A DNA stretch of 64,000 bases from a virus. Lineage: Duplodnaviria > Caudoviricetes. Location: positions 1 to 64,000 of the IMG/VR virus record IMGVR_UViG_3300035070_003276; one strand, 5' to 3'. Every line of letters begins with the position of its first letter. The first letter of the stretch is position 1. This document shows, one piece after another, positions 7,183 through 32,920 of the stretch. Below the pieces are notes generated by a model that did no database searches, had not been told where the DNA came from, and saw only the letters and a list, made by a program, of their open reading frames with translations. A program made the position numbers and the translations under genes.

Positions 7183-7671
7183 ATGAGTATGTCAAAAATT
7201 ATAGGAATTGTAATATTCCTATTGATTGGGTTAGAATCAACCCAAGCACAAGATGATTTAATTAAGATAGGTGAAGTTACCAACGAAATCCGAATGGGTA
7301 AGTTTGCTGGTAATAGAAATCTTGCTTATGGTGTTCAGAATATATTAGAAGAGATTCTAATGGATATGGATTATTACTTAGATGATGAATCTCCCAAAGA
7401 AATAACATTACGATTAGTTTTTTTCGATGTAAAAAACATTGGAACGAATGTTGGCATCTACCATAAAGATGTTGCACTAACCCAAATCATAGCAATCGGT
7501 GAATTACTGATTGATGGTAAGGTGGTGAAGAGTACAATCCAAAAAGGACAATCTAAAACCATATCTACCTCAACATTAGTTATTGCCGATGATGGGACAT
7601 TTAACCAACAAACGGCTTCAATTGCTTTAAAGAAAGTATGTGTTGCTGTTATTAAAAAATTATTTGAATGA
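7183..7671 (+). CDS. Exported small CsgG/TolB_N-like protein (module A1; paralog of 32522..32920)
   Basis: Signal peptide ending TQA-QD. LAYGVQNILEEIL and TFNQQTASIALKKVC align with FTFGVRQITEEIV and PFEQTEFSVAMKKAI of the paralog. Confidence 0.65.
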   Translation: MSMSKIIGIVIFLLIGLESTQAQDDLIKIGEVTNEIRMGKFAGNRNLAYGVQNILEEILMDMDYYLDDESPKEITLRLVFFDVKNIGTNVGIYHKDVALTQIIAIGELLIDGKVVKSTIQKGQSKTISTSTLVIADDGTFNQQTASIALKKVCVAVIKKLFE

Positions 7672-9410
7672 AAAAAATAGTATTATTATTAGTTAGTTTA
7701 GTGTTTACGTTAAGTATGAATTCTCAAAATGTAAACATATCATTAGATTATGCTGGATTAATAGTTGAACCAGTTCAAGGAGAAATAACACCAGTTACCG
7801 CATTAGAAATTGGAGATGAGTTTTATTTGGATGTTACAATACAAACAAATTCAGATACTTATCAAACAACTTATGCTGATATATGGTTTACATTTAAGAA
7901 TGATGCATTTGAATATTTAGGTGTAGATAATCCATTACAAAATAATAGTTGGTACACATACCAATGGCCATCCCACTATATATTCAACAATTCAACAACT
8001 GCTGATGTAGATGATTTATATGGTCAATACTTTACTGACCATTATTGGGAATATGTTGGTGAGAGTGCATCAGACCATGCACCTATGGTTATTACATCAC
8101 AAACAACTAATACATTAGATGGAGTTGTTGCTAGATTAAAATTTAAATATAAACAAGTTCCAAACGGATTTGATTTTTCTCAATCGGCAATGATACGAAA
8201 AGCATATATTAGAGATAATGTAAATGGATATACGTTTACGGATGTTAAGGCATTTCCAAACCAAACGTTTGATAATGTTCCACCATCTACAACAGTAACT
8301 GCAGCATTTAAAGTTCTATTTCCAGAATCATTAGACCCAACATTATTTGATGGTGGGTTATATAAACGTGAAAGTGAAACCGAATGGGTACAACCAATTG
8401 GTGCTATTTATGAAAATTTAAGTTCAACTGGTACATTAGATATTACACAAGGATTTAATAGAACTGATGAATTGGCAGTAATTGTAAATTGGGATGGATA
8501 TGTAGTTGATTCTGAAAATGGTGATTATGTAAAACCATTTCAAGAACAATTTACCGAAATAGTAACCATATCGGATGTAGCTCTTGCGTTTGCCGAGTTG
8601 AGTAATGGTGGTATAAATGGTGATGAAATTGGAAATGAGTTTAACTATGGTGTTCAATTTATGAATGGTGATGTTAATAATGATGGAATATTCAATTCAG
8701 ATGATACGTACTTAATGTTATCTCATGTATTAAATGGTACACCTACGTTTGCAGGAACCAACGAAGCGATGTTTGAGGTATCTAAATTTTATCCAAAGCA
8801 ACAATACGATACTATCACAATTGCAAACTATTCTCAAATTCCTAATTATACTACATTGTTAAATATTTTGGATAATCAGAATATGAGTGAATTACAATTT
8901 AGTTTTGAATCAACAATAACTTGGAAAGGTGATGTTAACTTATCACATTCAACTGAACCAGATTTAGTTGACCAAGCAGCTGCAACGCAAGCTAGGAGTT
9001 TTACTCCATCATATTCTAAATCAATTAATAAAACTGAAAGAGAGATAGCAACTACATTGGTTACTGAATTGGTTGATGGTAAGGTTAAAGTAACTATAAC
9101 AATGAATGTAGGTTCACAGGATGTTATTGGTACTCAATTCAAACTTGGATTTGATACAACTCGATTAAGTTATGATGATATTAATTTTGAAACAACACAA
9201 GCATCTACTAACTTTAGTAACTTAAAAAGTAACATCATTAACATTGGTTCATTGGTGCAGATACAAAATGAGTTCTTAGATTCTGATACTAAATATACAT
9301 TAACATTTACGCCTAATGGTACATTAGATAATACTTTAGGATTAGTTACATTATTAACAACTGATGCGGTTAACAAAATTGGTGAACAACTTAAACTAAA
9401 AATAGAATAA
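7668..9410 (+). CDS. Exported protein with cohesin-like, dockerin-like and second cohesin-like regions (module A2)
   Basis: Signal peptide; cohesin-like IGDEFYLDVTI...DIWFTFKNDAFEYLGV; dockerin-like ISDVALAF...GDVNNDGIFNSDDTYLML; C-terminal cohesin-like VIGTQFKLGFDTTRLSYDDI. Paralog of 26824..28755. Confidence 0.7.
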   Translation: MKKIVLLLVSLVFTLSMNSQNVNISLDYAGLIVEPVQGEITPVTALEIGDEFYLDVTIQTNSDTYQTTYADIWFTFKNDAFEYLGVDNPLQNNSWYTYQWPSHYIFNNSTTADVDDLYGQYFTDHYWEYVGESASDHAPMVITSQTTNTLDGVVARLKFKYKQVPNGFDFSQSAMIRKAYIRDNVNGYTFTDVKAFPNQTFDNVPPSTTVTAAFKVLFPESLDPTLFDGGLYKRESETEWVQPIGAIYENLSSTGTLDITQGFNRTDELAVIVNWDGYVVDSENGDYVKPFQEQFTEIVTISDVALAFAELSNGGINGDEIGNEFNYGVQFMNGDVNNDGIFNSDDTYLMLSHVLNGTPTFAGTNEAMFEVSKFYPKQQYDTITIANYSQIPNYTTLLNILDNQNMSELQFSFESTITWKGDVNLSHSTEPDLVDQAAATQARSFTPSYSKSINKTEREIATTLVTELVDGKVKVTITMNVGSQDVIGTQFKLGFDTTRLSYDDINFETTQASTNFSNLKSNIINIGSLVQIQNEFLDSDTKYTLTFTPNGTLDNTLGLVTLLTTDAVNKIGEQLKLKIE

Positions 9411-9763
9411 TGAAAAAACTTATTTATACACTACCATTTATATTCCTATTGGGATGTAATTCTGATTATATTGAAGATATTAAGCCACCATCATCTGATT
9501 ATATTGTTGATATATTTCAAATTGAAAGTACCACTGTTAGGGATGGTGATAAAGTTAAAATAAAATTCGATAATGTAGCAACATATAAACTATCGTTAAC
9601 CGATGAATTTACAAATATAACATATACGAATGAAAAGTTTAACTCAGTAGTTGGAGAAAACATATTAACCATTTTCACTAAAGCAATTCCAAAAGGAAGT
9701 TTTATTTTTATGGTTAAAGATAGTGATGGTAATATAATTAAAAAAACAAAAATTAAGATATGA
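9410..9763 (+). CDS. Lipoprotein resembling a stand-alone T9SS C-terminal (Ig-fold) domain (module A3)
   Basis: Lipobox FLLG-C. C-terminus TKAIPKGSFIFMVKDSDGNIIKKTKIKI resembles the L.xG.Y.....K..K end of T9SS type A CTDs. Confidence 0.55.
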   Translation: MKKLIYTLPFIFLLGCNSDYIEDIKPPSSDYIVDIFQIESTTVRDGDKVKIKFDNVATYKLSLTDEFTNITYTNEKFNSVVGENILTIFTKAIPKGSFIFMVKDSDGNIIKKTKIKI

Positions 9764-10074
9764 GTGAAGATACAAAAGAAAAGGGATTTCTTTCTAACAT
9801 AAAGAATCAAATATTAACTGGCGCTGGTGTGGTTCTTACAACCATCGGAACTATGTTTGTAGATGAAGTTAAATCGTTTATAGGTATTACCGATGAAGAT
9901 GATACACAAACAGAACAGGTTGATGTTAAGCAAAACAATAACCAAAATGTAAATGTAACAGGTCCTACTATTGTGGTAAATGTACCAGAACAAAAACCAG
10001 CAGAAACTAAAACAATTATAAGAGAAGTTCCTGCTAAGAAAAAAGTAGAAAAAGAAGAGGCTATTGATTGGTAA
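9760..10074 (+). CDS. Membrane-anchored QNVNVTGP-motif protein (module A4; paralog of 28768..29145)
   Basis: N-terminal TM segment; QNVNVTGPTIVVNVPEQ...KTIIRE is shared with the paralog. Confidence 0.75.
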   Translation: MSEDTKEKGFLSNIKNQILTGAGVVLTTIGTMFVDEVKSFIGITDEDDTQTEQVDVKQNNNQNVNVTGPTIVVNVPEQKPAETKTIIREVPAKKKVEKEEAIDW

Positions 10075-10093
10075 TATATTAAAATTAAAAATT

Positions 10094-10327
10094 ATGAAAA
10101 CATTTTTAAATTGGTGGAAAGTTTGGGGACAAGTATGGGGGTTTGTTGCTATTGTTGTGGTGTTAACAATAACGATTGAAAGTCCTGATATTAGGATACT
10201 AATTAACGAAACGCCTGGGTTTGGATTACTATGGATTGCTACTTTTTTTGGTGGATGTTATTGGTATGTTTGGCAAATGAAGATACATGGTTGGAGATTA
10301 CCAAAGGATATTAAAGATACACATTAA
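10094..10327 (+). CDS. Small two-TM membrane protein (module A5)
   Basis: Better start at the ATG 10094 after an A-rich leader; two Trp-rich hydrophobic helices. Confidence 0.6.
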   Translation: MKTFLNWWKVWGQVWGFVAIVVVLTITIESPDIRILINETPGFGLLWIATFFGGCYWYVWQMKIHGWRLPKDIKDTH

Positions 10328-10336
10328 AACAAAAAT

Positions 10337-11056
10337 ATGAAAAAAATATTACTAATAGTGATGTGTGTGTGTTTTACACATACCACATTTGGACAAACGA
10401 TTGGAAAAGTTAAAGCTGAGACTTATGTAGCTGAGTTTGAGAAAAGAAAATCTATTGATGATGTATCTGATTACGATGGTGAGATGATTCCAATAGCTTT
10501 ATTAAAAGTAGGAGTTTCTGATGATTTGTATGAAACTTATCCAGAATTAAGAGATGCTAGAATTGGATTAGGACTAACTAACATTGTAATTGAATACTTA
10601 GATTGGACTAATAGATTTGAGTTTGTAGAAGAGAAATCTGAGATTAAGAATAGAATGAAAGCTCAATGGATAGCATCACGTAAAGGTGTATCTGAAAATA
10701 AAGTATATGGTATGGGTAAGATTACTCTTGCTAGATACTTTGTTACTATTGAGATATATGATTTCTCAGTATCCGAAGATGAAGTACTATCTTTAAAAGA
10801 TGGTTCTAAACAAACTCAAACAACTCGTTTAGGATTGCAAGTTAGATTTACTGATGCTGAAACTGGAAGATACTTTGTGGGAAGTGGATTAGGTGATGCT
10901 AATACTGTTAAAACTCAAGAAGGATTAATAGGATTGGATATGGATGAAGTTAAATTCAGACAATCGGCTATTGGTGTTACTACTCGTAAAGCATTAGAAA
11001 CTGCATCTGCTAGGATTGTAGCTAGAATGATTCGTAAGAAAATATTCATAAACTAA
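10337..11056 (+). CDS. CsgG/HfaB-like exported protein (module A6; paralog of 29148..29888)
   Basis: Signal peptide; GLGLTNIVIEYLDWTNRFEFVEE, YFVTIEIYDFSV, LGLQVRFTDAETGRYFVGSG, AIGVTTRKALETA follow the CsgG (PF03783)/TolB_N pattern. Confidence 0.75.
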   Translation: MKKILLIVMCVCFTHTTFGQTIGKVKAETYVAEFEKRKSIDDVSDYDGEMIPIALLKVGVSDDLYETYPELRDARIGLGLTNIVIEYLDWTNRFEFVEEKSEIKNRMKAQWIASRKGVSENKVYGMGKITLARYFVTIEIYDFSVSEDEVLSLKDGSKQTQTTRLGLQVRFTDAETGRYFVGSGLGDANTVKTQEGLIGLDMDEVKFRQSAIGVTTRKALETASARIVARMIRKKIFIN

Positions 11057-11059
11057 TGA

Positions 11060-12382
11060 ATGAAACGATTAATCATAATATTATTTTTATTTGTAACAAC
11101 ATTAACATATAGTCAATCAACATTTACACAAACGTTTGTAGATAGGTGTACTGGAGAAGTTAGTATTGTGACTGCTGTATTTGTAAATGGTTCAACTACT
11201 ATTGCATTTTATAATAAAATTAGAACATTCACATATCAACAATTTACAAATGGTGAATTACAACTTTGGTTAAATGAAACTTATGAATGGTGGAGTAACT
11301 TAACTCCATGTTCTCAACAAACAAATCAACAACAACAAGCACAACAAGCAGCAGCGGCAGCCGCAGCGGCGGCAGCGGCAGCGGCTGAAGCGGAAGCAGC
11401 AGCCCAAGCGGCAAGTGCAGCTAGTAATGCATCATCAACTTCAACAAATAATGGAACATCTTCAACTAATTCTTCATCAACTTCAGATAACTCTTCTTCA
11501 AATTCAACTGATACTGATTCAGGTGGAAATTCAAATGGGGGTAATGAAGGGGGAGAATCAAATAGTGAAGGAACTGGTGAAGGTTCATCAAATGAAGAGA
11601 GTAAAGCTGAAGAAACTGAGGTTGAAGAAACGAAAGAAGAAGTAACTGAAGAAACGAAAGAAGAAAAATCCGAAGAGGAGACGAAGGAAGAGAAAAAGAA
11701 AAAAGAAGAAGAGGATAAGAAGAAAAAACGTAAGTTGAATCCAATTCAATTGAACGCAGATGCTATGGGTATGCAAAATCCTTTCGGAGGATACGATACG
11801 GCTATATCAATTGGGGCATCCCAATCATCTATATATGGTGATGTATCATATTCAGCTAATGTGATGTTATATAGTAATCTGAATCAGATATCCATCGCAT
11901 TGGGTAAAACTAAAATGTATTTGAATGATAAATACAAAGTAAGTTGGATAGAATCTATTGGTGTTAGTTACTCAAATAATTATGGTTCCCAATCAGTAGC
12001 ATCTTCTTTTATGAGATTAAAACCAATGGGTACGAAAGGTACATTGGGTGTTGGATTAAATTATTCAATTAATTGGGGTACTCTTATAGAAAATCCTATG
12101 ATATCATTTGGATATAACTTTCTATATGCTAATTCATTTCCGATAACGAATAGATTAACGTATTCACCCGCATTTATATTAGCACATACACCAATAACAT
12201 ATACAACAAAGAAAGATAGTAGTTTAGCATCAAATGATATTATGTTTATTGTAGCTAACTCATTTACGTATAGGATAACAAAAACGTTTACAATAAACTT
12301 TGGTTACACTGGTATTAAGAGTACCAATCCCAATATTCCATTAATAAATACATTTATGGTTGGCTCTAAGTTACCATTTTAA
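11060..12382 (+). CDS. Exported protein: Cys-pair N-domain, low-complexity linker, C-terminal beta-barrel (module A7; paralog of 29878..31329)
   Basis: Signal peptide; FTQTFVDRCTG...TPC; Q/A/S/N/E-rich linker; KKKKRK; about 200 aa of alternating amphipathic strands ending FMVGSKLPF. Confidence 0.7.
   Translation: MKRLIIILFLFVTTLTYSQSTFTQTFVDRCTGEVSIVTAVFVNGSTTIAFYNKIRTFTYQQFTNGELQLWLNETYEWWSNLTPCSQQTNQQQQAQQAAAAAAAAAAAAAEAEAAAQAASAASNASSTSTNNGTSSTNSSSTSDNSSSNSTDTDSGGNSNGGNEGGESNSEGTGEGSSNEESKAEETEVEETKEEVTEETKEEKSEEETKEEKKKKEEEDKKKKRKLNPIQLNADAMGMQNPFGGYDTAISIGASQSSIYGDVSYSANVMLYSNLNQISIALGKTKMYLNDKYKVSWIESIGVSYSNNYGSQSVASSFMRLKPMGTKGTLGVGLNYSINWGTLIENPMISFGYNFLYANSFPITNRLTYSPAFILAHTPITYTTKKDSSLASNDIMFIVANSFTYRITKTFTINFGYTGIKSTNPNIPLINTFMVGSKLPF
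11348..11423 (+). repeat. GCN trinucleotide run encoding poly-Ala
   Basis: 13 consecutive Ala codons (gca/gcg/gcc/gct), then EAEAAAQAASAA; very GC-rich for this genome. Confidence 0.85.
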
Positions 12383-12395
12383 ATAATATAGTATT

Positions 12396-12953
12396 ATGAG
12401 AAAATTAGATTACAAATGGTTGATAATAGGTTTACTATTGATACTAACCATTATCCAAATGAAAGAACCAGCTAAGATAGTTGATAAAATTGTTGAAGTT
12501 GAAAAGATTATAGAGGTTGAAAAGATTATAGAAAAAGAAATACCTATTGAGGTTGTCAAAGAAAAAATCATTAGAATACCAATTACTACTGAAGTAATAA
12601 AAGAAGTAGAGAAAATAGTGGAGGTTGAAAATACTGATAAGATAGCTGAGTTATCTCAAACCATAGTTAAGTTAAAGATGCGATTACGGAAGAAGCCATC
12701 AGTTAAGATTAGAGAAATAGAAGTTATGAGACCTCAACAATCCCAATGGTATTTGGGTATAGGTTATGATTATGATAATACTAATATATTTGGTGGAAGT
12801 AGCATAAGTGGAATGTATAAAACCCCAACTGATAAAATGTTTGGGGTATCATTAGGTGTTAGAAGTAATATACAAAACTTTGAAACAGGTGAAACCATCC
12901 TAATACCATATGTTGGATTAAAAATGTACATAAGACTGGATAAAGATAAATAA
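12396..12953 (+). CDS. Membrane-anchored protein with (K/E)IVEVEKI repeats and a beta-rich C-terminus
   Basis: N-terminal TM; repeated KIVEVEKII/EVEKIVEV; C-terminal WYLGIGYDY...GVSLGVR strands. Confidence 0.6.
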   Translation: MRKLDYKWLIIGLLLILTIIQMKEPAKIVDKIVEVEKIIEVEKIIEKEIPIEVVKEKIIRIPITTEVIKEVEKIVEVENTDKIAELSQTIVKLKMRLRKKPSVKIREIEVMRPQQSQWYLGIGYDYDNTNIFGGSSISGMYKTPTDKMFGVSLGVRSNIQNFETGETILIPYVGLKMYIRLDKDK

Positions 12954-12964
12954 AAGTTTTATTA

Positions 12965-12972
12965 TATTTATA
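12965..12972 (+). promoter_or_regulatory. TATTTATA motif
   Basis: Exact motif ending 4 nt before the ATG at 12977. Confidence 0.45.
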
Positions 12973-12976
12973 TACT

Positions 12977-13633
12977 ATGGTAGTGTATGATTTCAAAAAT
13001 GTTGGTAAATTAAAGAACCTAATAAACTCAGAAGAAGTTCTACCAAAACATGCTGATAAGATTAGTAATATATCAAATGGACTGTTTAAGGGGTTTAAAT
13101 ATGATTCATACAAAGATATACCACCCTACCCAAACGAATCGATAAGAACACTTCAAGAACTTATAAAACTGATGGGTATCAATACTAATGATGACTTCAT
13201 TTATAGTATGGATAGAATTACTGATATGTTTAAGGAACTATGCTCTGAGTTAGATGTTCCAATAGATGAAAATCAAATTGAAAACATATTAAATAATGCA
13301 AGTGGGGTTATCTTAGACTTAAAATATCACTTCAATAGACCAAGACCTAATTTAGTTGCAAAATTATATGGATTGGATTTGGATAAAAATAAATTACATT
13401 TAGATACTGCTGATTCACCATCATATCCATCGGGTCATGCTACACAAGGAACTTTAATTGCAAATTATTTCGCAAATAAATATCCCAAACATGCTATACG
13501 ATTTAAAAAGTTAGGTAGAGATATCGGAAAGAGTAGAATAAACGCTAAAGTACATTACCCATCTGATATTGTAGTTGGGGAACGATTGGGAAACGATATG
13601 TTCCAATATTTAAAAGAAAAAGGATTATTATGA
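12977..13633 (+). CDS. PAP2-superfamily phosphatase (acid phosphatase/haloperoxidase fold)
   Basis: All three PAP2 motifs: K-x4-RPRP (KYHFNRPRP), SYPSGH, SR-x5-H-x3-D (SRINAKVHYPSD). Confidence 0.9.
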   Translation: MVVYDFKNVGKLKNLINSEEVLPKHADKISNISNGLFKGFKYDSYKDIPPYPNESIRTLQELIKLMGINTNDDFIYSMDRITDMFKELCSELDVPIDENQIENILNNASGVILDLKYHFNRPRPNLVAKLYGLDLDKNKLHLDTADSPSYPSGHATQGTLIANYFANKYPKHAIRFKKLGRDIGKSRINAKVHYPSDIVVGERLGNDMFQYLKEKGLL

Positions 13634-13866
13634 AAGAATATGCAGTACAAAAGCAGTTAGTAGCAGTAGATACTAACGCTGGTGACCCTAATTGGGCAAA
13701 AAGACAAATATGGGTTTATAAATTAAATGCAGAAGATACATTGGATGAGTATGATACTATTGAAGAAGCTCAATCTAAAAGAGATGAGTTAGATAATGAG
13801 GACCCATCTGCACGAGTTTATAGAGTAGTAAGAAGAATTGACAAGTTCTCATATGAAGTGCTTTAG
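13630..13866 (+). CDS. Hypothetical protein
   Basis: 78 aa; ATGA overlap with the upstream stop. Confidence 0.65.
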   Translation: MKEYAVQKQLVAVDTNAGDPNWAKRQIWVYKLNAEDTLDEYDTIEEAQSKRDELDNEDPSARVYRVVRRIDKFSYEVL

Positions 13867-14156
13867 TTGTCTTGTCTAAATTTTTATTTTAATTTATTTT
13901 TTTAAAACAGTTTAAACAGTGTCATGTCTTGCACCGTGTCTCTGTGTCAGAGAAAAATTGAAAAAATTTAAATAGAAGAATTTATCTGAACCAACAGCCT
14001 AACGATTATGACTGAAGTTTGGAAGCAATTTAGAGTGGAGAAGCTTCTTTCAATGTATCCACTATCTTATGTGAGTATATATAGATATATACATCAATCC
14101 CCAAACGATAAAAAAAATTCAACTATTTTCACATTTTGTAAATTTAGTTGAAAAGG

Positions 14157-14188
14157 CTTGGAACTTCCAATTATTATTCGTATATTTG
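14157..14188 (+). promoter_or_regulatory. Bacteroidota sigma-A type promoter
   Basis: CTTG (14157-14160), 20 nt, TATATTTG (14181-14188). Confidence 0.75.
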
Positions 14189-14207
14189 TTTATAAACATT
14201 AAATAGT

Positions 14208-14570
14208 ATGAGCGAAGAAACACCACAATACGGAGAATCAGCAGTTGAATTTTGTGAAAGAGTTTATCCACAAACAACTGAAGAGTTCAAAAAGATTCAA
14301 GAAGAAATGTACATTACTTTTTGTAAGAAGCAAAGAAATTATGGTCCAGGTAATATTTCAGTAGGAACCCCATTGGAAACCAAAGAAGATGTTAAGTTAT
14401 CTCTAACTGGATTATGGTTTCGTGTGAACGATAAGGTACAACGATTAAAGCAATTGGTTGTATTAGGTCAACCTGATGAGGTAGGTGAATCAATTCAAGA
14501 CACCTATGAAGATTTATCAGTATATGGTATCATTGCTCAATTAGTACAAAGAGGAAAATGGGCAAAATAA
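14208..14570 (+). CDS. DUF1599 / nucleotide-modification-associated domain 1 protein
   Basis: KKQRNYG...RVNDKVQRL...ESIQDTYEDLSVYGII pattern of the all-alpha MazG-like DUF1599 family. Confidence 0.75.
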   Translation: MSEETPQYGESAVEFCERVYPQTTEEFKKIQEEMYITFCKKQRNYGPGNISVGTPLETKEDVKLSLTGLWFRVNDKVQRLKQLVVLGQPDEVGESIQDTYEDLSVYGIIAQLVQRGKWAK

Positions 14571-14704
14571 AATTTGAAATATGTTCAGTATGGGGGCAGA
14601 TTTATATTTTCCCATATATTAAGATAACATATGATAGAACACTTAATGGTGATTTAGAAGTCATCATTGGTTGGTTAAATAAAGAAATAATAATTGGAAT
14701 ATAA
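14558..14704 (+). CDS. Small hypothetical protein (not in ORF track)
   Basis: 48 aa MGKIKFEICSVWGQIYIFPYIK...; its stop abuts the next ATG (TAAATG). Confidence 0.5.
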   Translation: MGKIKFEICSVWGQIYIFPYIKITYDRTLNGDLEVIIGWLNKEIIIGI

Positions 14705-14932
14705 ATGAGAACAGCAGTAGATATAGTTTTGGAAGGAGTTTCCAATAGCTCTATTAGTAAAGAAGATGCAAAAATACTTTTAGAAGCAATCAATCAAAAA
14801 GGAGGTACAACTTTTATACCCCTTCCTTATGAACAACCTTCTTATCCTTCGTATCCCTCACCTCCTTGGAAACCAGGCGATATTTGGTACACAACAAATA
14901 CAAACACAACATCAGATAATAATCTAAAATGA
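14705..14932 (+). CDS. Hypothetical protein
   Basis: 75 aa, Pro-rich middle, overlapping junctions. Confidence 0.6.
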   Translation: MRTAVDIVLEGVSNSSISKEDAKILLEAINQKGGTTFIPLPYEQPSYPSYPSPPWKPGDIWYTTNTNTTSDNNLK

Positions 14933-16046: not shown

Positions 16047-16049
16047 TAA

Positions 16050-16057
16050 TATTTATA
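16050..16057 (+). promoter_or_regulatory. TATTTATA motif
   Basis: Exact motif ending 16 nt before the ATG at 16074. Confidence 0.45.
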
Positions 16058-16073
16058 TCTAAACAATATATTA

Positions 16074-24092: not shown

Positions 24093-24093
24093 T

Positions 24094-25206: not shown

Positions 25207-25454
25207 TGGCAATACTCACATACACATCAGAAGAACCAACTAATAGAGAGGCAATGAGTGTATCATTTGATATGCCTGATGATATGAACATATATGAATT
25301 TAAAATTATGTGTGTTCGCTTAGCAAGTTCTTTGGGATACCACCCATCTTCAATTAAAAATGCATTTGGAGAAACCGAAATCAGAACAAATTTGGATAAC
25401 GAATTAGCAGATTTAATTAATTCAATGAACGTAACAACTAGTTCGTTAGTATGA
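25206..25454 (+). CDS. Hypothetical protein
   Basis: 82 aa with overlapping junctions. Confidence 0.65.
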   Translation: MAILTYTSEEPTNREAMSVSFDMPDDMNIYEFKIMCVRLASSLGYHPSSIKNAFGETEIRTNLDNELADLINSMNVTTSSLV

Positions 25455-25663
25455 TAGATGATGTTATACTACATAAACTATTAACTTTAGAAGTGATAGT
25501 TGAAACACTAATGGATACGTTAATAGAAAATGAATTAATAGATGTTGAAAAATTTGATGATTCTCTTGTGGAAAAAATAAAAGAGTTGGGCAGTATATCA
25601 ACTAAAACTAAAGATGAATTTGATTATTCACCTTTTCTAATGGGCCCAAAAGGAGAAGCCTAA
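25451..25663 (+). CDS. Hypothetical protein
   Basis: 70 aa acidic helical ORF. Confidence 0.65.
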   Translation: MIDDVILHKLLTLEVIVETLMDTLIENELIDVEKFDDSLVEKIKELGSISTKTKDEFDYSPFLMGPKGEA

Positions 25664-25669
25664 AATAAA

Positions 25670-25701
25670 TTTGGAAAATTGAAATATTTTTCGTATATTT
25701 A
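25670..25701 (+). promoter_or_regulatory. Bacteroidota sigma-A type promoter (variant), upstream of the sigma factor operon
   Basis: TTTG (25670-25673), 20 nt, TATATTTA (25694-25701). Confidence 0.65.
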
Positions 25702-25717
25702 CATTATCTTTTATATT

Positions 25718-25981
25718 ATGGAAATTTTATATATTATATTAGGAGTATCAATCATACTGAATATCTTTCTTTTTTGGAGAGGTATTCGTTTGGTTACTCA
25801 AGTAGAACAATCTCAACTAAACGTTGTTAACACCAATTATAATACTCTACAAACATTGGAAACTATGTTAGATGAAATGAGGCAGTTGGATTTAAAGGGT
25901 TCATTTGAATCCGATGATGAAGTGGGTGTAGTATTCTCAGAATTAAAAGATGTTATTAAAAAATATAAAGATAACATTTAA
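25718..25981 (+). CDS. Small single-pass membrane protein
   Basis: ATG at 25718; TM ILYIILGVSIILNIFLFW; then a coiled region. Confidence 0.65.
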   Translation: MEILYIILGVSIILNIFLFWRGIRLVTQVEQSQLNVVNTNYNTLQTLETMLDEMRQLDLKGSFESDDEVGVVFSELKDVIKKYKDNI

Positions 25982-25984
25982 ATT

Positions 25985-26710
25985 ATGGCAAAACCAAGAA
26001 AGAAGAAATCAAAAATATATTTTGGAACACCTGCGCAAGATGCTATTATCGAATACAATAATAGTAAAGACCCGCGTGAACGAAATCAGATATATAAAGA
26101 ACGTATCAAATTTCCATTCGAAAAACTAGCTGAGAATATTATGAATACATTTAAGTTCTCATACTTTGATGTACCAAAGATTGATATTCAGAATGAAGTA
26201 GTATCTGTATTGATACAAAAGATACATATGTATAAGCCTGATAAGGGTCGAGCTTTCTCATATTTTTCTATTGTTGCAAAGAATCATTTAATTCTACAAA
26301 ACAATGGAAATTACAAACGTTATAAAAAAACAGCATTACTTTCTCAGATGCCGGAATCTTGGAACCCAGAAGATAACTTTCATGTTGACCAACAAGGTTC
26401 AGAATTCAATGAATTTAAAGAATTAATGTTGGAGTATTGGGATAAAAACTTAACAAAGGTATTTAATAAGAAGAGAGATATTCAAATAGCAGATGCTATT
26501 TTGGAGTTATTTCGAAGAAGTCAATACATAGAAAACTTTAATAAAAAGCATTTATACCTTCTTATTAGAGAAATGACTGATTGTAAAACTCATTATATTA
26601 CAAAAGTAGTTAACGTTATGAAAGAACATCAAAAACGAATGTTAAACGAATATTTGGATTACGGAGAGATATCAGATAATCCAAATGAAGATGAGTTCTT
26701 TTCCTATTAG
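25985..26710 (+). CDS. Phage sigma factor, T4 gp55-like (putative late transcription)
   Basis: N-terminal ..YF...AQDAIIEY; sigma region 2-like DIQNEVVSVLIQKIHMYKPDKGRAFSYFSIVAKNHLI. Confidence 0.65.
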   Translation: MAKPRKKKSKIYFGTPAQDAIIEYNNSKDPRERNQIYKERIKFPFEKLAENIMNTFKFSYFDVPKIDIQNEVVSVLIQKIHMYKPDKGRAFSYFSIVAKNHLILQNNGNYKRYKKTALLSQMPESWNPEDNFHVDQQGSEFNEFKELMLEYWDKNLTKVFNKKRDIQIADAILELFRRSQYIENFNKKHLYLLIREMTDCKTHYITKVVNVMKEHQKRMLNEYLDYGEISDNPNEDEFFSY

Positions 26711-26715
26711 TATAA

Positions 26716-26723
26716 TACTTATA
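26716..26723 (+). promoter_or_regulatory. TACTTATA variant motif upstream of envelope operon B
   Basis: One-mismatch variant of TATTTATA, about 100 nt before the ATG at 26824. Confidence 0.35.
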
Positions 26724-26823
26724 TTTAGATAAATTAGGAAACACTACAAATCCTAAACAGTTTTATTAATCACTTTGGTTTTATTAATAAGTTATAGTTA
26801 CTTCACTAAAGAGTAATTATCTT

Positions 26824-28755
26824 ATGAAACGATTTTTATTAGGCCTGATACTAATGTTACCATTTGTGTCTTATGGTCAAAATGGGGCTAATGAAATACT
26901 TACAGCCCCTAACTCAAACTCTCCACATATACTTGTGGATACTCTATTTACGTTAGAGCAAGATATTTCGGTTGGTTATACTGAAATTTATTTACACTAC
27001 GCTAACCCAACCCCATCTGATATATTCTCAGCTGTTCAGTTCAGAATATTCTATGATGATGTTAAGTTTACAACCCCTGAGATTTATTGGGGACCTACTG
27101 CTACTCCGATTACTGATAAGTATGGTTCTTACTTTGCTAATTCAGATTATGTAAACGTTATTGCATCTTATACAGGTAACAATAGTGGATTTGATTGGGC
27201 AGATGGGGCAATGTTTAAATTACGATTATATCACACTACCGCATACGATGGTGTTGTAGATTCAATTGCAATAGCTGGCTCAACAACTTACAATAACTTA
27301 GCAACTACAACTTCCGGATTAGATGTTCCATTAGCAATGCACAACTATGGTGGTAATTTCCAAATGGATATTTTGGAGTTCCCAATTATTGCAAGAAATG
27401 CAGATGGAACTCCTGCACAAGGTATGTGGTTTACTGCTCAAAAAAGATTAAAATCAGATGTTTCTGGTTTATGGACACCAATCTCAATGGATTCAACAAA
27501 CTCAAATGGATTGTTCGTTGTACAAGACCAATTAGATACCGCATTTTGGCATCTGAGAGTTACTGCACAATCTGATACGATGAGTGATGGGTTTGCATTA
27601 TCCGTAACTGATGCATATAAATTAGCAAACCAAGCTTCTCAACAAGATACACTTTCGGGAATCGAATGGTATGCTGGTGATATTAACGAAAGTAACGATG
27701 TAACCATTTCAGATGCATTCGCAATGTTTAATAGATTAGCATTACAATCTACAACGTGGACATCATTATTTAGTGGTGTAAACAACGTAGCAATATTATG
27801 GCCAGATGAATACATATCAGCATTGGCTGCAACTACATCTCCAACTTGGACAAACACTCCGAGAGTTTACGTAATAGACACAATTGTAAACTCAATGGAT
27901 TCACTTAAACCTTACATTTATGTAGTAGGTGATGCAACTACAACGGGTTACAACAACCCTGGTGTATTGGTTGCTAAGATGGCTGACCCCGGTATTGGGA
28001 CGGATTACATATTAGACCCAGCGGTATATCTTTCAAACAAACCTGATACTGTTGAATTTAGAATTCCTAAGTTAACAATGACGGTTGATAATAAAATGAG
28101 TGTACCTGTAACTCTCTACACATTTGGTAACCAATTAGGTGCTATCCAAATGGGTATTGAATTCGATACTACTATCTTTAGATTTGAATCAATTGAAATG
28201 GGTGATGCAACTTCTAAATGGACATCAGTTCTATCGGTGGAGAAAGGAAAAGTATTTTGGGCAGGACATGAGGATAGATTAAACCCAGCATTGGTTGATG
28301 ATATGACAACTCAGTTCACATTTAACTTTGAGGTAATTGACCCATTGGGTTGGAATCAATCACCATTAAAAATAGTTGAAAAAATGGCTGGTGATAGATA
28401 TGCACAAGATGTTAGTGTTAAACCTTCACCAAATGATGGTTCAGTTGTTAATAGAACTTCAATTGACCCTGAGTTAGACCTGATGATGAATGGATTCAAA
28501 GTTTATCCAAATCCAACAACTGAATTTATGGGACATTGGGTTGTATTTGAATATCACACTTACTTAGAGGATGGTGATGTTAATGCAATCGTTTATGATA
28601 TTAATGGTAGAGAGGCAATGAGATGGTCTGATAAGATTTATCAAAGTGGTTTCCAATTCCAAGGTTTCACAATGGAAAATTTACCAAACGGAATGTATTT
28701 GGTAAGGTTGGTTACGCAAGATAGAGATAAAGTTTATAGAATTATTAAAAAGTAA
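26824..28755 (+). CDS. T9SS type A sorting-domain protein with cohesin-like and dockerin-like regions (module B1)
   Basis: Signal peptide; cohesin-like SAVQFRIFYDDVKF; dockerin-like SVTDAYKL...GDINESNDVTISDAFAMF; cohesin-like GAIQMGIEFDTTIFRF; canonical CTD KVYPNP...VYDINGR...NLPNGMYLVRL...KVYRIIKK. Confidence 0.85.
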   Translation: MKRFLLGLILMLPFVSYGQNGANEILTAPNSNSPHILVDTLFTLEQDISVGYTEIYLHYANPTPSDIFSAVQFRIFYDDVKFTTPEIYWGPTATPITDKYGSYFANSDYVNVIASYTGNNSGFDWADGAMFKLRLYHTTAYDGVVDSIAIAGSTTYNNLATTTSGLDVPLAMHNYGGNFQMDILEFPIIARNADGTPAQGMWFTAQKRLKSDVSGLWTPISMDSTNSNGLFVVQDQLDTAFWHLRVTAQSDTMSDGFALSVTDAYKLANQASQQDTLSGIEWYAGDINESNDVTISDAFAMFNRLALQSTTWTSLFSGVNNVAILWPDEYISALAATTSPTWTNTPRVYVIDTIVNSMDSLKPYIYVVGDATTTGYNNPGVLVAKMADPGIGTDYILDPAVYLSNKPDTVEFRIPKLTMTVDNKMSVPVTLYTFGNQLGAIQMGIEFDTTIFRFESIEMGDATSKWTSVLSVEKGKVFWAGHEDRLNPALVDDMTTQFTFNFEVIDPLGWNQSPLKIVEKMAGDRYAQDVSVKPSPNDGSVVNRTSIDPELDLMMNGFKVYPNPTTEFMGHWVVFEYHTYLEDGDVNAIVYDINGREAMRWSDKIYQSGFQFQGFTMENLPNGMYLVRLVTQDRDKVYRIIKK

Positions 28756-28767
28756 CATTAATTTATT

Positions 28768-29145
28768 ATGAAAGAAGAAATCAAAGAAGGGATGTCCACT
28801 CTTAAAAAAGGTGTGATTGGATTGTTGGGAACATTAGTAGCAGGTGTGGGAACATTTGTAACTACTCAATTTAATTCATTATTGGGAATTGAAGAAGAAT
28901 CAGAAACTCCAACTGAGATTGTAGTGCCGGTTGAAAACACACAACAACAAAATGTGAATGTAACTGGACCTGAAATCATCATTAACATTCCACAACAACA
29001 AACACCAGCTCCTACTCGTACAATCATAAGAGAGACTGTTAAGGAAGTTCCTGCAGCGCCGATTGAAGTTGTAGAAGAGAAGCCAGAAACTCCAATGGAA
29101 AGAATGGCTAGACTAAAAAGAGAAAGAGCAGAAAAAAATAAATAA
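28768..29145 (+). CDS. Membrane-anchored QNVNVTGP-motif protein (module B2)
   Basis: TM segment, then QNVNVTGPEIIINIPQQ...RTIIRE; paralog of 9760..10074. Confidence 0.75.
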   Translation: MKEEIKEGMSTLKKGVIGLLGTLVAGVGTFVTTQFNSLLGIEEESETPTEIVVPVENTQQQNVNVTGPEIIINIPQQQTPAPTRTIIRETVKEVPAAPIEVVEEKPETPMERMARLKRERAEKNK

Positions 29146-29147
29146 TT

Positions 29148-29888
29148 ATGAGAACGAGAAAAGATGTAATTTTAGAATGGACAGTAGCACCTTTGATGCT
29201 TATCCTTACCGCTTGTGCCTTAGTATTTGTAGGTACATTCGCAACCTCATGTTCTTCATCAGTTGGTGTGGTTCAATATCAAGCTGATTTTGAGAAGGCA
29301 GAACCCCTAAATACAATTCCACCATTTACAGGTGAGAAGCAAATTGTACAACTTTCGAAATTAAATGTAAATAAAGAACTATGGGAAATGTTTCCTGAGT
29401 TGAGAGATAAGAGAGTTGGTTTAGGTGTATCGAATCGTATTATCGAAAACTTTGAGATGACTCAAAGATTCAAATACGCTGAAGAAAAAGAAGCTATTCA
29501 AAACCAAATGTTAGATGCTTGGGAAGCCGAACTCAATGGAATGGGTGATGGGCAAACTGAGTTAAAGATGGAGGGCATTGCTTTACCTAAGTATATCGTA
29601 TATGCTGAGATTTATGATTTCGCAGTATCGTATGGTGAAAACTATAAACGGGGTAAATCAGAAATAACTAACACTACTATTATGGGTATCCAAATCAGAA
29701 TGGTCAATGTAGATAACTCACAATACATCGTAGCGAGTGGACAGGGAACTGCAACTCAGATAGGTGAGGGATTCTTCAAAAATCCACAAATGGGTTTTGA
29801 TAATTCAACTGTTGGTATCGCTACCCAACGTGCGTTAGAGGTTGCTACGGTAAACCTTGTGAAACGTATGGAAAGTTATGGATGGTAA
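29148..29888 (+). CDS. CsgG/HfaB-like lipoprotein (module B3)
   Basis: Lipobox ATS-C; FPELRDKRVGLGVSNRII...RFKYAEEK, YAEIYDFAVS, GIQIRMVNVDNSQYIVASGQG; paralog of 10337..11056. Confidence 0.78.
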   Translation: MRTRKDVILEWTVAPLMLILTACALVFVGTFATSCSSSVGVVQYQADFEKAEPLNTIPPFTGEKQIVQLSKLNVNKELWEMFPELRDKRVGLGVSNRIIENFEMTQRFKYAEEKEAIQNQMLDAWEAELNGMGDGQTELKMEGIALPKYIVYAEIYDFAVSYGENYKRGKSEITNTTIMGIQIRMVNVDNSQYIVASGQGTATQIGEGFFKNPQMGFDNSTVGIATQRALEVATVNLVKRMESYGW

Positions 29889-31329
29889 GAAATGGTTAAT
29901 AGTATTATTACTTCTTATAGGGTTTAAGTCATTTGGGCAATCGTTCCAATACACTTATATTGACCCCTGTACTGGTGTTCCTAATACTGTAACTATTTCA
30001 CAACCTTCAGGTTCGGTAACTCTTTTTTACGCAGGACAATATCAGAATTTTACATCAACCCAACTTCAAGCCGGTGGTTATGAAGCTTGGGTTGCTTCTA
30101 TTAATGCTGCATCCCCACCGGGTTCTAATCCTTGTGCTGGAAATGCTGGAGCCGTAAGTGGTTCTACTTCTGCATCGGTAGGTACGAACGTATCAAATAC
30201 CGTATCTAACATATCGGGTGCACTTGCCACATTGGGTTCTTCCACATCTGGTGGTTCCTCTGGTGGAATGGGTACATCTACCTCTTCATCTGGTAGTTCA
30301 TCATCAACCTCTTCTTCAAACGATGGTGGTTCATCTTCTGGTAGTAGTGGTACCGATGGTGGTGATACTGGTGGAAGTGGTAGTGGCGATACTGGGGGTT
30401 CTGGTGGTTCTTCTGGTAGTGGAGATGGTGGTAGTGGTGATACTGGTGGAGGTTCTTCTGGTGGAGGTTCTGGTGGTTCTGGTGGTTCATCGGGTGGAGG
30501 TTCTACTGAGGGTGGTGTATCATCCGATGGTGGTAGTACAACTTCAGATGGGGATGGTGGCTCATCTAATGGTGGGGCAATTGGTGATAAAGATATTGAT
30601 GCAGAATCAGGTGGACAATCATCTGATTCCGAATCCGAAGATTCCGGTGGAAGTGGTGGTGGAAAGAAAAAGAAAAAAGGAGCAAGAGCAAGAAGGGGTT
30701 CGTTAATTGCATCGGGTGATATGGTAGTTGTTCGTAATGGTTCAGATTACAAAGAAAGTGGTAACGATAATCTTAAATTCAATATGGGGGTTACTTGGGC
30801 AAATACTAACCAAACAATTACGGCTGGTGGGCTGTTAAATTATACAACGGGGCAAAATGAATTTTCTCTTACGGGATATGGTTCTTTTAAGATTGAAGAA
30901 TCAATGATTGTAGGGTCTAACTCATTCCTATACAATGTATCTCAACAAACTTGGTTCAATACGGGTAATGTAATGTATGCATTCAAACAAAATAAGTATT
31001 TAACCACATTAATGGGAACTAACTTTTCAGTAGGTCAATTAGGTGATGAAACATTTTCAAATTGGGCAGCAAACATTGGTACATTTACTACCTTTAATGG
31101 TTATAAAGGATTTGCGATGAACTTAATGGGTATCGCAATGTACTCACCTTATACTTTCTTCTATGAAGGACAATGGTTCAAAGGAGGATTCCTTTTTGTA
31201 CCTCTAACAAGTTTTGATTTTAATGTTACAAAAACTTTTAAATTTAATATATCTACCTCAACTGTATATTTAATGGGTGAGGGTATATTAAACTTTCAAC
31301 TAATGACTGGTACGAAGATGTTGTTATGA
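29878..31329 (+). CDS. Exported protein: Cys-pair N-domain, Gly/Ser linker, C-terminal beta-barrel (module B4)
   Basis: Signal peptide; FQYTYIDPCTG...NPC; about 140 aa G/S/T/D linker; KKKKK; amphipathic strands ending LMTGTKMLL; paralog of 11060..12382. Confidence 0.7.
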   Translation: MDGKKWLIVLLLLIGFKSFGQSFQYTYIDPCTGVPNTVTISQPSGSVTLFYAGQYQNFTSTQLQAGGYEAWVASINAASPPGSNPCAGNAGAVSGSTSASVGTNVSNTVSNISGALATLGSSTSGGSSGGMGTSTSSSGSSSSTSSSNDGGSSSGSSGTDGGDTGGSGSGDTGGSGGSSGSGDGGSGDTGGGSSGGGSGGSGGSSGGGSTEGGVSSDGGSTTSDGDGGSSNGGAIGDKDIDAESGGQSSDSESEDSGGSGGGKKKKKGARARRGSLIASGDMVVVRNGSDYKESGNDNLKFNMGVTWANTNQTITAGGLLNYTTGQNEFSLTGYGSFKIEESMIVGSNSFLYNVSQQTWFNTGNVMYAFKQNKYLTTLMGTNFSVGQLGDETFSNWAANIGTFTTFNGYKGFAMNLMGIAMYSPYTFFYEGQWFKGGFLFVPLTSFDFNVTKTFKFNISTSTVYLMGEGILNFQLMTGTKMLL

Positions 31330-32525
31330 TACGATGGTTAAAATTCTTTTTGGTATTTCCGTTGGGGTTGTTTTCACAAAATGTAACCTTTGCAACTGTT
31401 GGTATCCAAGATATGAGTGGCATTGATGTAACAATCATTCATACTCAACCTGGTGGTACAATTGGTAGTATATCTCAAATGACAAGTGGTATTCCGACAG
31501 ATAGAGGACAGGGAACTACAACCATATTCGCATCAGCTAATTCGGACCAAGGTTCAGTTATAGTAAACTTTCCAAATGGATATGAACCCGAAATTGGTGG
31601 TACATCTTATTCCACCGGTAAACTTCATGCTAATGCTTGGTTAGCTTTTCCAACTACAAACTATAATAGTTTCGCTAGTTCAGCATCTGCACCAAATGTA
31701 CCTACACTTCACTTTACTTCGGTAAACAATGGTAGTACCGATAACAATATGTCTCACGTTTCTACTGAGACTTATAATGACCCATCATTAGGTGATGTAT
31801 TTAGAATTAGGTATGAGGGAAGTTATAGGTATAATGTGAGTGGTATCAATACAAAGATAGACTTATACTTTGCAAAGAATAACAACAAAGAAATCTTAGT
31901 GGTACTTAGACAATTTTTGGCAGATGGTTCAAATCAAGAACAAATCGGATTATCAAATGGTAGTAGTTGGTTAGCATCTAACATTATCTCATCTACATCA
32001 TATTCAAACGGAAACGCTTGGTCAATCGATAATACTGTATTGGTTGGTGTAAGGGATACTTTAACAACACAAACCACAACATCAACCGGTATGTTAAATT
32101 TTAACAATCCAAATAACTACGATTATGAAGTGATAGTGGATGTGAGTAATATGAACAATATACTTACTGAATCTGAAATGAATTACTTAATGTATCTAAG
32201 AATGTTCCCAAATGAAATTACATCTTGGGATTATCATACGATGAACTTCTACACATTAGATAGTTCAGATATTACAACTTATTCGGATGTATTCTCTGCA
32301 TATCAACTATACAAATTGGGACAGAACTTTGGATACACTTATAATAACAATTGGGTATATTCACAATCGGAAAAAGATGATATAGAATCAAATGCAAATA
32401 GTTTAATTTATCATTTAAAGTATCCAAAAGAATCAATCAGAACATTTAACAATCTCAATAGGTTTTATATCGTTTCTTTGGGTAAACACCGAAGAACAAC
32501 TAATACAAAAACAATAACACAATGA
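31326..32525 (+). CDS. Exported beta-rich protein with degenerate dockerin-like C-region (module B5)
   Basis: Signal peptide ending LFS-Q; C-region ITSWDYHTMNF...DITTYSDVFSAYQL echoes the duplicated dockerin-like helix pattern of B1. Confidence 0.5.
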   Translation: MIRWLKFFLVFPLGLFSQNVTFATVGIQDMSGIDVTIIHTQPGGTIGSISQMTSGIPTDRGQGTTTIFASANSDQGSVIVNFPNGYEPEIGGTSYSTGKLHANAWLAFPTTNYNSFASSASAPNVPTLHFTSVNNGSTDNNMSHVSTETYNDPSLGDVFRIRYEGSYRYNVSGINTKIDLYFAKNNNKEILVVLRQFLADGSNQEQIGLSNGSSWLASNIISSTSYSNGNAWSIDNTVLVGVRDTLTTQTTTSTGMLNFNNPNNYDYEVIVDVSNMNNILTESEMNYLMYLRMFPNEITSWDYHTMNFYTLDSSDITTYSDVFSAYQLYKLGQNFGYTYNNNWVYSQSEKDDIESNANSLIYHLKYPKESIRTFNNLNRFYIVSLGKHRRTTNTKTITQ

Positions 32526-32920
32526 ATCCAATCGTATGCTATTTCGTAGCAAGTGTAATCTCACTTGCATCTCTAAAGGATATTCCTGAAGAAAAGTTCA
32601 CTTTCGGTGTAAGACAAATCACCGAAGAAATCGTAGGACAAGACCAACCATTATGTCCTGATGGTTCACCAATCTATGTTACAGTAGAATCAATCAAAGC
32701 ACCAACCAAAGGAATCCAAATCGGACCATTTAAGTTCAAACAAAAGAAAACTTTGGTAACGGTAAACGTTGTAAAAGATGGAGTTGAATCAATAGGTGTA
32801 GGTTCGGCTAAAATGAATGTATCTGCAACACTTTTACAATTGCAAGATGAGAACTTACCATTCGAACAAACGGAATTTTCAGTTGCAATGAAAAAGGCAA
32901 TTGAGGATGCGATGGATTAG
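32522..32920 (+). CDS. Small CsgG/TolB_N-like protein (module B6; paralog of 7183..7671)
   Basis: FGVRQITEEIV and FEQTEFSVAMKKAIE align with A1. Confidence 0.65.
   Translation: MNPIVCYFVASVISLASLKDIPEEKFTFGVRQITEEIVGQDQPLCPDGSPIYVTVESIKAPTKGIQIGPFKFKQKKTLVTVNVVKDGVESIGVGSAKMNVSATLLQLQDENLPFEQTEFSVAMKKAIEDAMD

Follow-up and report, generated by a model that had tools for sequence, protein, structure and literature searches.

Genes of curli type have already been described in marine phages. Clusters of CsgG and CsgF have been published for the pelagimyophages of the HTVC008M group and for the Methylophilales phage Melnitz, their function being unknown (PMC7029224, PMC9004378). The CsgG of HTVC008M is 40% identical to that of Escherichia coli, and its gene adjoins those for CsgF and a curlin-like protein. 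Here, a set of genes comparable with these clusters is analysed in a window of 64,000 nucleotides, the whole stretch of DNA under study, which comprises positions 1 to 64,000 of the IMG/VR virus record IMGVR_UViG_3300035070_003276 (Duplodnaviria; Caudoviricetes). The set, called the cassette below, occurs twice in the window, as operons A and B. Like the published clusters, it is a short operon for exported proteins, centred on an outer-membrane protein of the CsgG superfamily, here named G, in a marine T4-like myophage; it likewise has no fibre subunit of known type, and its genes have not been found in host genomes. The pelagimyophage and Melnitz genes are true curli genes, whereas G is about 13% identical to CsgG in a structure-based alignment and is reached through profiles only. 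CsgF is missing, and the partners of G are instead an autotransporter-like barrel, a truncated paralog of G, a membrane anchor and cargo with cohesin, dockerin and type IX secretion system (T9SS) features. Sequence comparison places the pelagimyophage CsgG in a different branch of the superfamily from G, with different partners. No description of the present cassette was found in the literature searched, and in the cultured Flavobacterium phage vB_FspM_immuto its genes are annotated only as lectin, cohesin or hypothetical proteins; the remark in a first-pass annotation of this DNA that no such system was known from phages thus holds for the cassette itself, but not for phage CsgG/CsgF clusters at large (PMC7029224, PMC9004378).

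We lean towards reading the cassette as a phage-specific device for the host envelope, in which a ring of two CsgG-related proteins (G and S), an outer-membrane barrel (F) and a membrane anchor (T) hold variable cargo and thereby change the surface of the host. As judged from their sequences and models, the products of the cassette are all sent to the host envelope, and the cassette is, by the distribution of its homologues, widespread in large myophages of Flavobacteriia. Signal peptides, lipoboxes and transmembrane (TM) helices were called by reading the N-termini, with a regular expression for the lipobox. All open reading frames (ORFs) lie where first annotated, on the plus strand. Operon A spans 7183-12953 and operon B 26824-32920; the former had been taken to end at 12382, but it continues to A8. 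The genes, with lengths in amino acids (aa), are as follows.

7183..7671, plus strand: A1, or S(A), 162 aa; signal peptide, followed by a small domain akin to the C-terminal half of G
7668..9410, plus strand: A2, or C(A), 580 aa; predicted to be secreted, variable in its N-terminal part, with a pair of dockerin-like loop-helix repeats, the motif GDVN-SHS and, at the C-terminus, a cohesin-like domain
9410..9763, plus strand: A3, 117 aa; predicted lipoprotein (LLGC lipobox) whose mature part resembles the T9SS tag of B1
9760..10074, plus strand: A4, or T(A), 104 aa; a single TM helix close to the N-terminus, followed by an acidic linker, the conserved motifs QNVNVTGP and TIIRE, and IDW at the C-terminus
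10064..10327, plus strand: A5, 87 aa; two hydrophobic helices, in A-type cassettes only
10337..11056, plus strand: A6, or G(A), 239 aa; CsgG superfamily, with a signal peptide and no lipobox
11060..12382, plus strand: A7, or F(A), 440 aa; signal peptide, two-Cys N-domain, stalk, Lys-rich helix and predicted 12-strand barrel
12396..12953, plus strand: A8, 185 aa; hydrophobic helix at the N-terminus, repeats of the EKIIEVEK type and a C-terminus rich in beta structure, in A-type cassettes only
26824..28755, plus strand: B1, or C(B), 643 aa; begins with a signal peptide and ends in a T9SS type A sorting domain (560-643), with dockerin-like repeats and a putative cohesin domain (match at 411-477) between them
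28768..29145, plus strand: B2, or T(B), 125 aa; predicted single-pass membrane protein, paralog of A4
29148..29888, plus strand: B3, or G(B), 246 aa; CsgG-superfamily lipoprotein (ATSC lipobox)
29878..31329, plus strand: B4, or F(B), 483 aa; built like A7, with a stalk rich in G, S, T and D; its start overlaps the end of B3
31326..32525, plus strand: B5, 399 aa; predicted secreted protein that has only the dockerin-like region in common with B1, in a variable slot
32522..32920, plus strand: B6, or S(B), 132 aa; paralog of A1

Five pairs of genes link the two operons. Two of these are evident from single sequences, namely A6/B3 (BLASTP 1.1e-43, 36% identity over 232 aa) and A4/B2 (8e-19, 42%; 99.2% by profile-profile comparison). 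The remaining three emerge from profiles with non-overlapping member sets, built for families of relatives from 80 viral contigs: A1/B6, with a marginal BLASTP value of 0.015, scores 97.8% (E 1e-12); A2/B1, also marginal at 0.073, scores 98.8% (E 5.3e-17) over 274 columns (A2 249-552, B1 223-507), no members being shared; and A7/B4, for which BLASTP was blank, scores 100% (E 2.3e-39) over 396 columns. Apart from matches between signal peptides, no unrelated pair in this all-against-all comparison exceeds about 1%. The five paralog pairs of the first-pass annotation are thus confirmed, and by these comparisons C (A2/B1), T (A4/B2), G (A6/B3), F (A7/B4) and S (A1/B6) are true homologues. The core order C-T-G-F is kept in both operons, as had been noted, while S opens operon A and closes operon B. 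S-C-(A3)-T-(A5)-G-F-(A8) and C-(T)-G-F-variable-S are the two recurrent arrangements, A5 lying between T and G, and A8 after F, in 13 loci each. Both gene orders are found again among 80 and 24 viral contigs, and the co-occurrence in related genomes that had been proposed as a check is therefore present. None of the 14 cassette proteins matches PHROGs, apart from low-complexity matches to the stalk of A7; A8 has no match in scans of family libraries, and blastn of operon B against phage genomes returned only one 126-bp match of low identity.

That G belongs to the CsgG superfamily, as had been proposed for A6 and B3, is supported by both sequence and model. The Pfam family CsgG (PF03783) matches 20 of 35 full-length relatives of G (best 1.9e-17), A6 and B3 themselves falling below its threshold, and the profile of the G family aligns with E. 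coli CsgG by hhalign at 95% (E 3.8e-8, 222 columns). The AlphaFold2 (AF2) model of A6, with a predicted local distance difference test (pLDDT) score of 82.9, has CsgG 4uv2 as its best Foldseek match (E 2.6e-7), and the VIA comparison of the G model with CsgG gives Z 12.8 and a root mean square deviation (rmsd) of 3.5 for 158 aligned residues. PelC, LptE and FlgT rank lower among the fold matches (VIA Z 8.6-9.7), and a search of PDB sequences with the G profile found nothing. With E. coli CsgG (4uv2, 4uv3, 6l7a), G shares the fold, homology over the full length and, in B3, the lipoprotein signal. Its best-conserved motif, YPEL...GxG (P69, L71 and G79 conserved at at least 90%), aligns with the YPASNF loop, which we take from the CsgG structure papers of 2014 to be the constriction of the channel.

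The differences from CsgG concern its pore, lipid anchor and accessory proteins. The CsgG pore is a 36-strand barrel to which each subunit contributes two membrane hairpins. In G, the segments aligned with these hairpins fall short of them by 5 and 10 residues; they are polar and vary across the family, with acidic and basic residues on both faces and low confidence in the AF2 monomer. The lipobox is found in none of 29 A-type G proteins, A6 among those that lack it, and in 12 of 15 of the B type. Neither Pfam nor NCBIfam detects CsgE, CsgF, CsgA or CsgB in the operons; comparison of each family with the individual E. coli sequences of CsgE, CsgF, CsgA, CsgB and CsgC by local hhalign found none either, at a low power that missed csgG as well. 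In view of the short, polar hairpin segments, the missing lipobox of A-type G and the failure to detect genes for CsgE, CsgF or curlin, G is treated here as a probable ring-forming protein of the outer membrane and not as a demonstrated secretion channel.

Its profile marks S as a truncated relative of G, with homology to the C-terminal part of the latter (G families against the B6 family, 92.7%, E 4e-7). Relatives of A1 in the protein atlas are viral only and belong to unnamed clusters, in one of which 23% of the members have PF03923. When S, the periplasmic part of T and the N-domain of F were scored against G in a complex prediction, the result was 0.53, as compared with 0.00 for the best of three controls, and it fell to 0.00 when S was replaced. 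The runs agree in at least 64% of contacts, with partner pLDDT of at least 61. Of the calibration set, which is unlike this four-chain job, 58 of the 80 solved complexes reach this mark, as against 2 of the 110 mismatched pairs; scores of 0.60 or less include only 7 of the 80 solved complexes, together with both of the mismatched pairs that passed.

Bacterial relatives of the G subfamily occur in other settings. Some adjoin, or are fused with, a peptidase C14 of caspase type, one of the neighbours having a PEGA domain, and others are fused to Ser/Thr kinases (contig L109, 8001-10546; contig L111, 5675-8738; proteins P0194, P0210, P0218, P0211 and P0243). We know of no characterisation of such an association of a CsgG subfamily with C14 caspases or kinases. 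The caspase/PEGA or kinase context was considered as a functional lead for the cassette and rejected as unrelated to it. In the window, a 450-aa protein of the tail or baseplate region (42108-43460, plus strand) has a PEGA domain (E 1.6e-4), the domain that also accompanies the bacterial caspase neighbour of CsgG-like genes.

F is, by its predicted structure, a 12-strand outer-membrane barrel most like the translocators of autotransporters, in agreement with the barrel originally proposed for A7 and B4. A7 consists of the two-Cys N-domain (about 20-85), a Q/A-rich helix, a disordered stalk (about 125-205), the Lys-rich helix (206-221) and 12 strands (230-439) that are modelled by AF2 with pLDDT 85-92. 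In VIA comparisons the barrel matches the NalP translocator best (Z 23.2, rmsd 2.5, 226 aligned), followed by EstA, EspP and AIDA-I (Z 19.5-21.3), the 12-strand porins KdgM/NanC (Z 19) and FapF (Z 18.6; Foldseek E 1.9e-7). The signal peptide, helix and C-terminal 12-strand barrel are thus common to F, type Va autotransporters (NalP 1uyn, EspP, EstA, AIDA-I) and FapF. In contrast to the autotransporters, A7 and B4 have no match to a Pfam or NCBIfam autotransporter family at E up to 1 and 0.1, respectively; the apparent passenger is a two-Cys domain of about 65 aa on a disordered stalk of 110-390 aa; a poly-Lys patch precedes the barrel; and F is always paired with G. FapF, a plugged trimeric 12-strand barrel with a linker and a periplasmic coiled coil, is encoded in the fap operon, and F matches it below the autotransporters. 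No fap genes were found, and the helix at 83-126 of A7 is predicted with low confidence and is not conserved in B4. The N-domain itself, a small, conserved sheet-plus-helix unit of disulfide type with two invariant, widely spaced cysteines (C30, C84), finds nothing in the protein atlas.

The genes for G and F are adjacent in nearly every locus that has both, usually within about 100 bases and often overlapping. This adjacency recalls the lipoprotein-barrel pairs PelC-PelB and LptE-LptD, in which a protein of the CsgG/LptE fold is likewise encoded with an outer-membrane barrel. G, however, matches PelC and LptE more weakly than it does CsgG, the barrels differ in size, and no genes of a polysaccharide or lipopolysaccharide pathway are present.

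The cargo of the cassette is variable. The C proteins share the motif GDxN, a pair of dockerin-like loop-helix repeats and a putative cohesin domain, the two loop-helix motifs being visible in A2, B1 and B5. Among 29 members of the C family, Pfam matches Cohesin in 16 (best 1.3e-11), the T9SS tail PF18962 in 12 (best 6.4e-14) and Dockerin_1 in 6 (best 1.3e-4), although no Dockerin_1 match was obtained for the proteins of the window; other members have Lectin_C (3), PA14/GLEYA (2) or, in a few cases, LCCL or Ig domains. The tail of B1 (residues 560-643) matches TIGR04183 with 32.9 bits against a cut-off of 23 (E 4.7e-8) and Pfam Por_Secre_tail at 1.3e-5, so that by its sorting domain B1 is a T9SS type A cargo protein, like such cargo in Bacteroidota. 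The cohesin assignment outside the N-terminal part, and the dockerin-like and T9SS-tag assignments, first made for A2 and B1 are thereby supported, through the family, the profiles and the match of B1. Between B1 and B5, the profile match (95.2%, E 2.6e-8) covers the dockerin-like region only. As in cellulosome-type scaffolds, C combines dockerin-like calcium-loop repeats with a putative cohesin, and B5 has the dockerin-like part only; unlike such scaffolds, the proteins are phage-encoded, come without glycoside hydrolases and unite cohesin and dockerin-like parts in one chain.

The two versions of the cassette appear to differ in how the cargo is tagged. A2 has a signal peptide and no T9SS tag. 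The A3 family aligns with the last 95 aa of the B1 family over the whole domain (hhalign 79.8%, E 1.5e-5, 76 columns), nine other families scoring at most 0.5%; on this alignment, A2 and A3 look like a split form of B1. Cargo is exchanged between otherwise similar cassettes: in the nearest relative, L003, A2 is replaced by an allele of 30% identity between flanking genes that are 86-90% identical, and C and B5 are swapped for alleles of 30-35% identity between flanks of 80-90%. The B5 slot holds 0 to 2 copies in relatives, with 24-81% identity. C is thus, from these comparisons, a fast-changing, domain-shuffled protein of dockerin-like and cohesin-like parts. T has an acidic linker and short conserved motifs, and neither a coiled coil nor a long helix.

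How these components might work together can be outlined as follows. In the infected cell, G and S would come together as a ring on the inner face of the outer membrane, with the F barrel next to it; the lipoprotein and barrel pairs PelC-PelB and LptE-LptD offer parallels. T would tie this assembly to the inner membrane. The complex would anchor or organise the variable C and B5 proteins at the cell surface or in the envelope, with contacts of the cohesin/dockerin type between cargo proteins. In version B, the C protein would be exported by the T9SS of the host, whereas in version A the untagged C protein would be paired with the tag-like lipoprotein A3, so that a phage with both cassettes could place two different sets of binding proteins, each anchored by a route of its own. 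The phage would probably benefit through an altered cell surface, on which adsorption of rival or progeny phages is blocked or by which infected cells stick to particles or neighbours. A fuller version of this scheme is possible, though we regard it as doubtful: a phage-built docking station in the outer membrane, made of the G/S ring, the stalked F barrel and T, that bears exchangeable cohesin, dockerin and lectin proteins as a cellulosome-like scaffold, is traded between phages as a cassette and, through the T9SS and lipoprotein routes, displays two independent binding sets that control cell adhesion or the adsorption of rivals.

A number of points weigh against an envelope device that anchors cargo in this way. 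Localisation is argued from N-termini as read, from one curated match to a T9SS tag and from fold predictions. The cohesin match of B1, at 23.8 bits, lies just under the Pfam cut-off of 24.1, and A2 has no Pfam match of its own, its link to cohesin coming only through its profile match with B1. The likeness of A3 to the tag, at 80%, is not decisive. The complex prediction hints at a G-S contact, its support being weak. The N-domain of F may face either the periplasm or the outside; its two widely spaced, conserved cysteines argue for the former, by analogy with autotransporter passengers. The tree of G discussed below comes from a quick search, with long outgroup branches and with support from the Shimodaira-Hasegawa-like approximate likelihood ratio test (SH-aLRT) only.

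Alternatively, the cassette might be a self-contained secretion machine in which G, as a CsgG-like pore, exports unfolded A2, B5 or the stalk of F, alone or together with F. The full-length membership of G in the CsgG superfamily, including the position of the constriction loop, would suit such a role, as would the resemblance of F to the amyloid exporter FapF in plug helix, linker and 12-strand barrel (Z 18.6), and A2, having a signal peptide and no T9SS tag, would need some route to the surface. We nevertheless consider this improbable, given that the hairpin regions are shortened, charged on both faces and variable, that A-type G has no lipobox, that no CsgE, CsgF or curlin-like genes were detected, that the tag of B1 exceeds the NCBIfam cut-off and that non-pore lipoproteins of the same fold (PelC, LptE, FlgT) also match G. 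The first-pass annotation had proposed a dedicated envelope machine of the phage that exports or assembles a surface layer; a secretion channel formed by G is not supported by these observations, and B1 would use the T9SS of the host and not a route built by the phage.

Somewhat less probable still is a device for lysis or for breaching the envelope, in which T, G and F act as a spanin pair or as a gated pore that times or completes lysis. A comparable hypothesis has been published for phage Melnitz, whose CsgGF pore was proposed to have a lysis role (PMC9004378). A single-pass inner-membrane protein together with outer-membrane proteins is indeed the layout of spanins, and the helix of F immediately before the barrel is reminiscent of plugged channels. 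Yet a spanin pair, with its inner-membrane coiled coil and outer-membrane lipoprotein beside holin and endolysin, is not matched: T has neither a coiled-coil region nor a long helix, and neither copy in the window adjoins an endolysin or holin gene; among the relatives, an amidase lies about 9 kb away in contig L001 and an endolysin about 8 kb away in immuto. Lectin, PA14, cohesin and T9SS-tagged cargo moreover has no role in lysis, and two copies would be redundant. Least of all do we expect virion or assembly-related proteins such as tail or baseplate accessories. Operon B is followed by o32981, o33378 and the gp25 and gp6-like genes, and a late-type ATATTTA motif precedes several structural genes, a similar word, too weak for an assignment of timing, lying about 100 nt upstream of B1. 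Against this, signal peptides, lipoboxes, a TM anchor and a T9SS tag direct the products out of the cytoplasm, where virions are assembled; no PHROG structural family is matched beyond low complexity; and copy A and the immuto cassette lie among early or nucleotide-metabolism genes. The earlier view that the products are exported and are not plain virion proteins is accordingly upheld, none of the tests run marking them as parts of the virion.

Returning to the envelope cassette, its distribution and conservation are as follows. Relatives of G occur in 231 viral IMG/VR contigs and form more than 2,000 clusters at 90% identity; copies of B3, 69-99% identical, are found in 24 viral contigs. The ratio of nonsynonymous to synonymous substitution rates (dN/dS) is 0.07-0.4 for all 14 genes and lowest in G, the synonymous rate being near saturation (A1, 0.11-0.31; A6, about 0.11; A8, 0.07 against L003), and by this measure all 14 genes are under purifying selection. 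In a maximum-likelihood tree of 97 G proteins, the phage copies group together against the bacterial relatives (98% SH-aLRT) and split into two deep, well-supported clades, one with B3 and the other with A6 and the S-last cassettes of immuto and many other phages. As S-last is found in both clades, it is probably the older order, and the direction of the proposed move of A1, from first place to last, is probably the reverse.

Complete or near-complete phage genomes of 119-343 kb have one G gene, of either clade. Both types are present in three other IMG/VR contigs, where their two contexts are those seen in the window. In the window, cassette B lies directly upstream of o32981, o33378 and the gp25 and gp6-like genes, and copy A, like the immuto cassette, lies among early or nucleotide-metabolism genes; in other phages the positions are crossed, with the A6-clade cassette by the baseplate block and the B type upstream of a homologue of o14208. 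From these sequence comparisons, the pair is an old, maintained co-residence of two cassette lineages rather than the product of a recent tandem duplication. Tree and flanks together indicate two long-separated cassettes that move between phages, in place of the duplication and rearrangement within one genome that had been suggested, and the pair would go back either to an exchange of cassettes among phages or to an old duplication after which copies were lost. Scans of bacterial genome contigs with G patterns found nothing; the F N-domain pattern was met in a single contig of 254 kb, which had been binned in a metagenome-assembled genome of Bacteroidetes and is most likely from a phage; at the sensitivity of these scans, no chromosomal copy of the cassette was found in bacteria.

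The window belongs, by its gene content, to a large T4-like myophage, with a gp6-like baseplate wedge protein, gp25, PhoH, a fused SbcCD, primase and peptide deformylase, and its phage nature had been recognised correctly at the outset. The sole match of A6 among deposited phage genomes (tblastn) is immuto, at 52% identity, a phage of 160 kb with the cultured host Flavobacterium sp. LMO8, in which gp013-gp019 make up a single copy of the cassette gene set. The T9SS tag of B1, a SusC-type TonB-dependent receptor at 2748-5468 and this relative all point to a host among the Flavobacteriia. The receptor gene (minus strand) encodes an intact protein of 906 aa with CarbopepD_reg_2, Plug and barrel domains and is flanked on both sides by plus-strand genes of phage type. 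Copies of 70-90% identity lie in the same place, beside a helicase, in contigs L003, L009, L014-L017 and L022, which identifies the receptor as a conserved phage gene and not as host flank.

Flavobacteriia are main degraders of algal polysaccharides in the sea, and their surface proteins, T9SS and TonB-dependent receptors decide both diet and phage attachment. If the cassette places swappable binding proteins on the surface of these bacteria, then particle attachment, aggregation and competition between phages might be altered, and the cassette would be a widespread means by which phages reprogram host surfaces. It behaves as a mobile unit, and a phage with both versions offers a natural comparison between a fused T9SS tag and a separate, tag-like lipoprotein. 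What the window newly contributes is the co-resident pair, the two deep clades of G, the crossed positions, the difference in lipid anchors and the fused as against the split tag. The cultured pair of immuto and Flavobacterium sp. LMO8 makes the question testable.

Several further features of the window and its relatives may be recorded. Directly after cassette A, a gene at 12977-13633 (plus strand) encodes a PAP2-superfamily phosphatase (E 9.3e-11) without an obvious signal peptide or TM helix; in many relatives, too, a PAP2 gene adjoins the A-type cassette, which it precedes in L001 and L002 and follows in L003, L009 and L017. What appears to be the fused SbcCD is a single ORF of 1043 aa (52430-55561, plus strand), with an SbcD-like nuclease at residues 2-347 and an SbcC-like ATPase at 275-1041. 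A giant ORF of more than 2452 aa (56643-63998, plus strand), open at the end of the window, has no PHROG match. The word ATATTTA(T) stands 20-40 nt upstream of several genes of the structural region (32981, 47705, 49642, 51495 and 56643). A host-type TAnnTTTG box, searched for by reading, precedes several early genes (463, 5679, 14208, 18230, 21046 and 23169) and neither operon A nor operon B. These two words may represent late and early classes of promoters, respectively.

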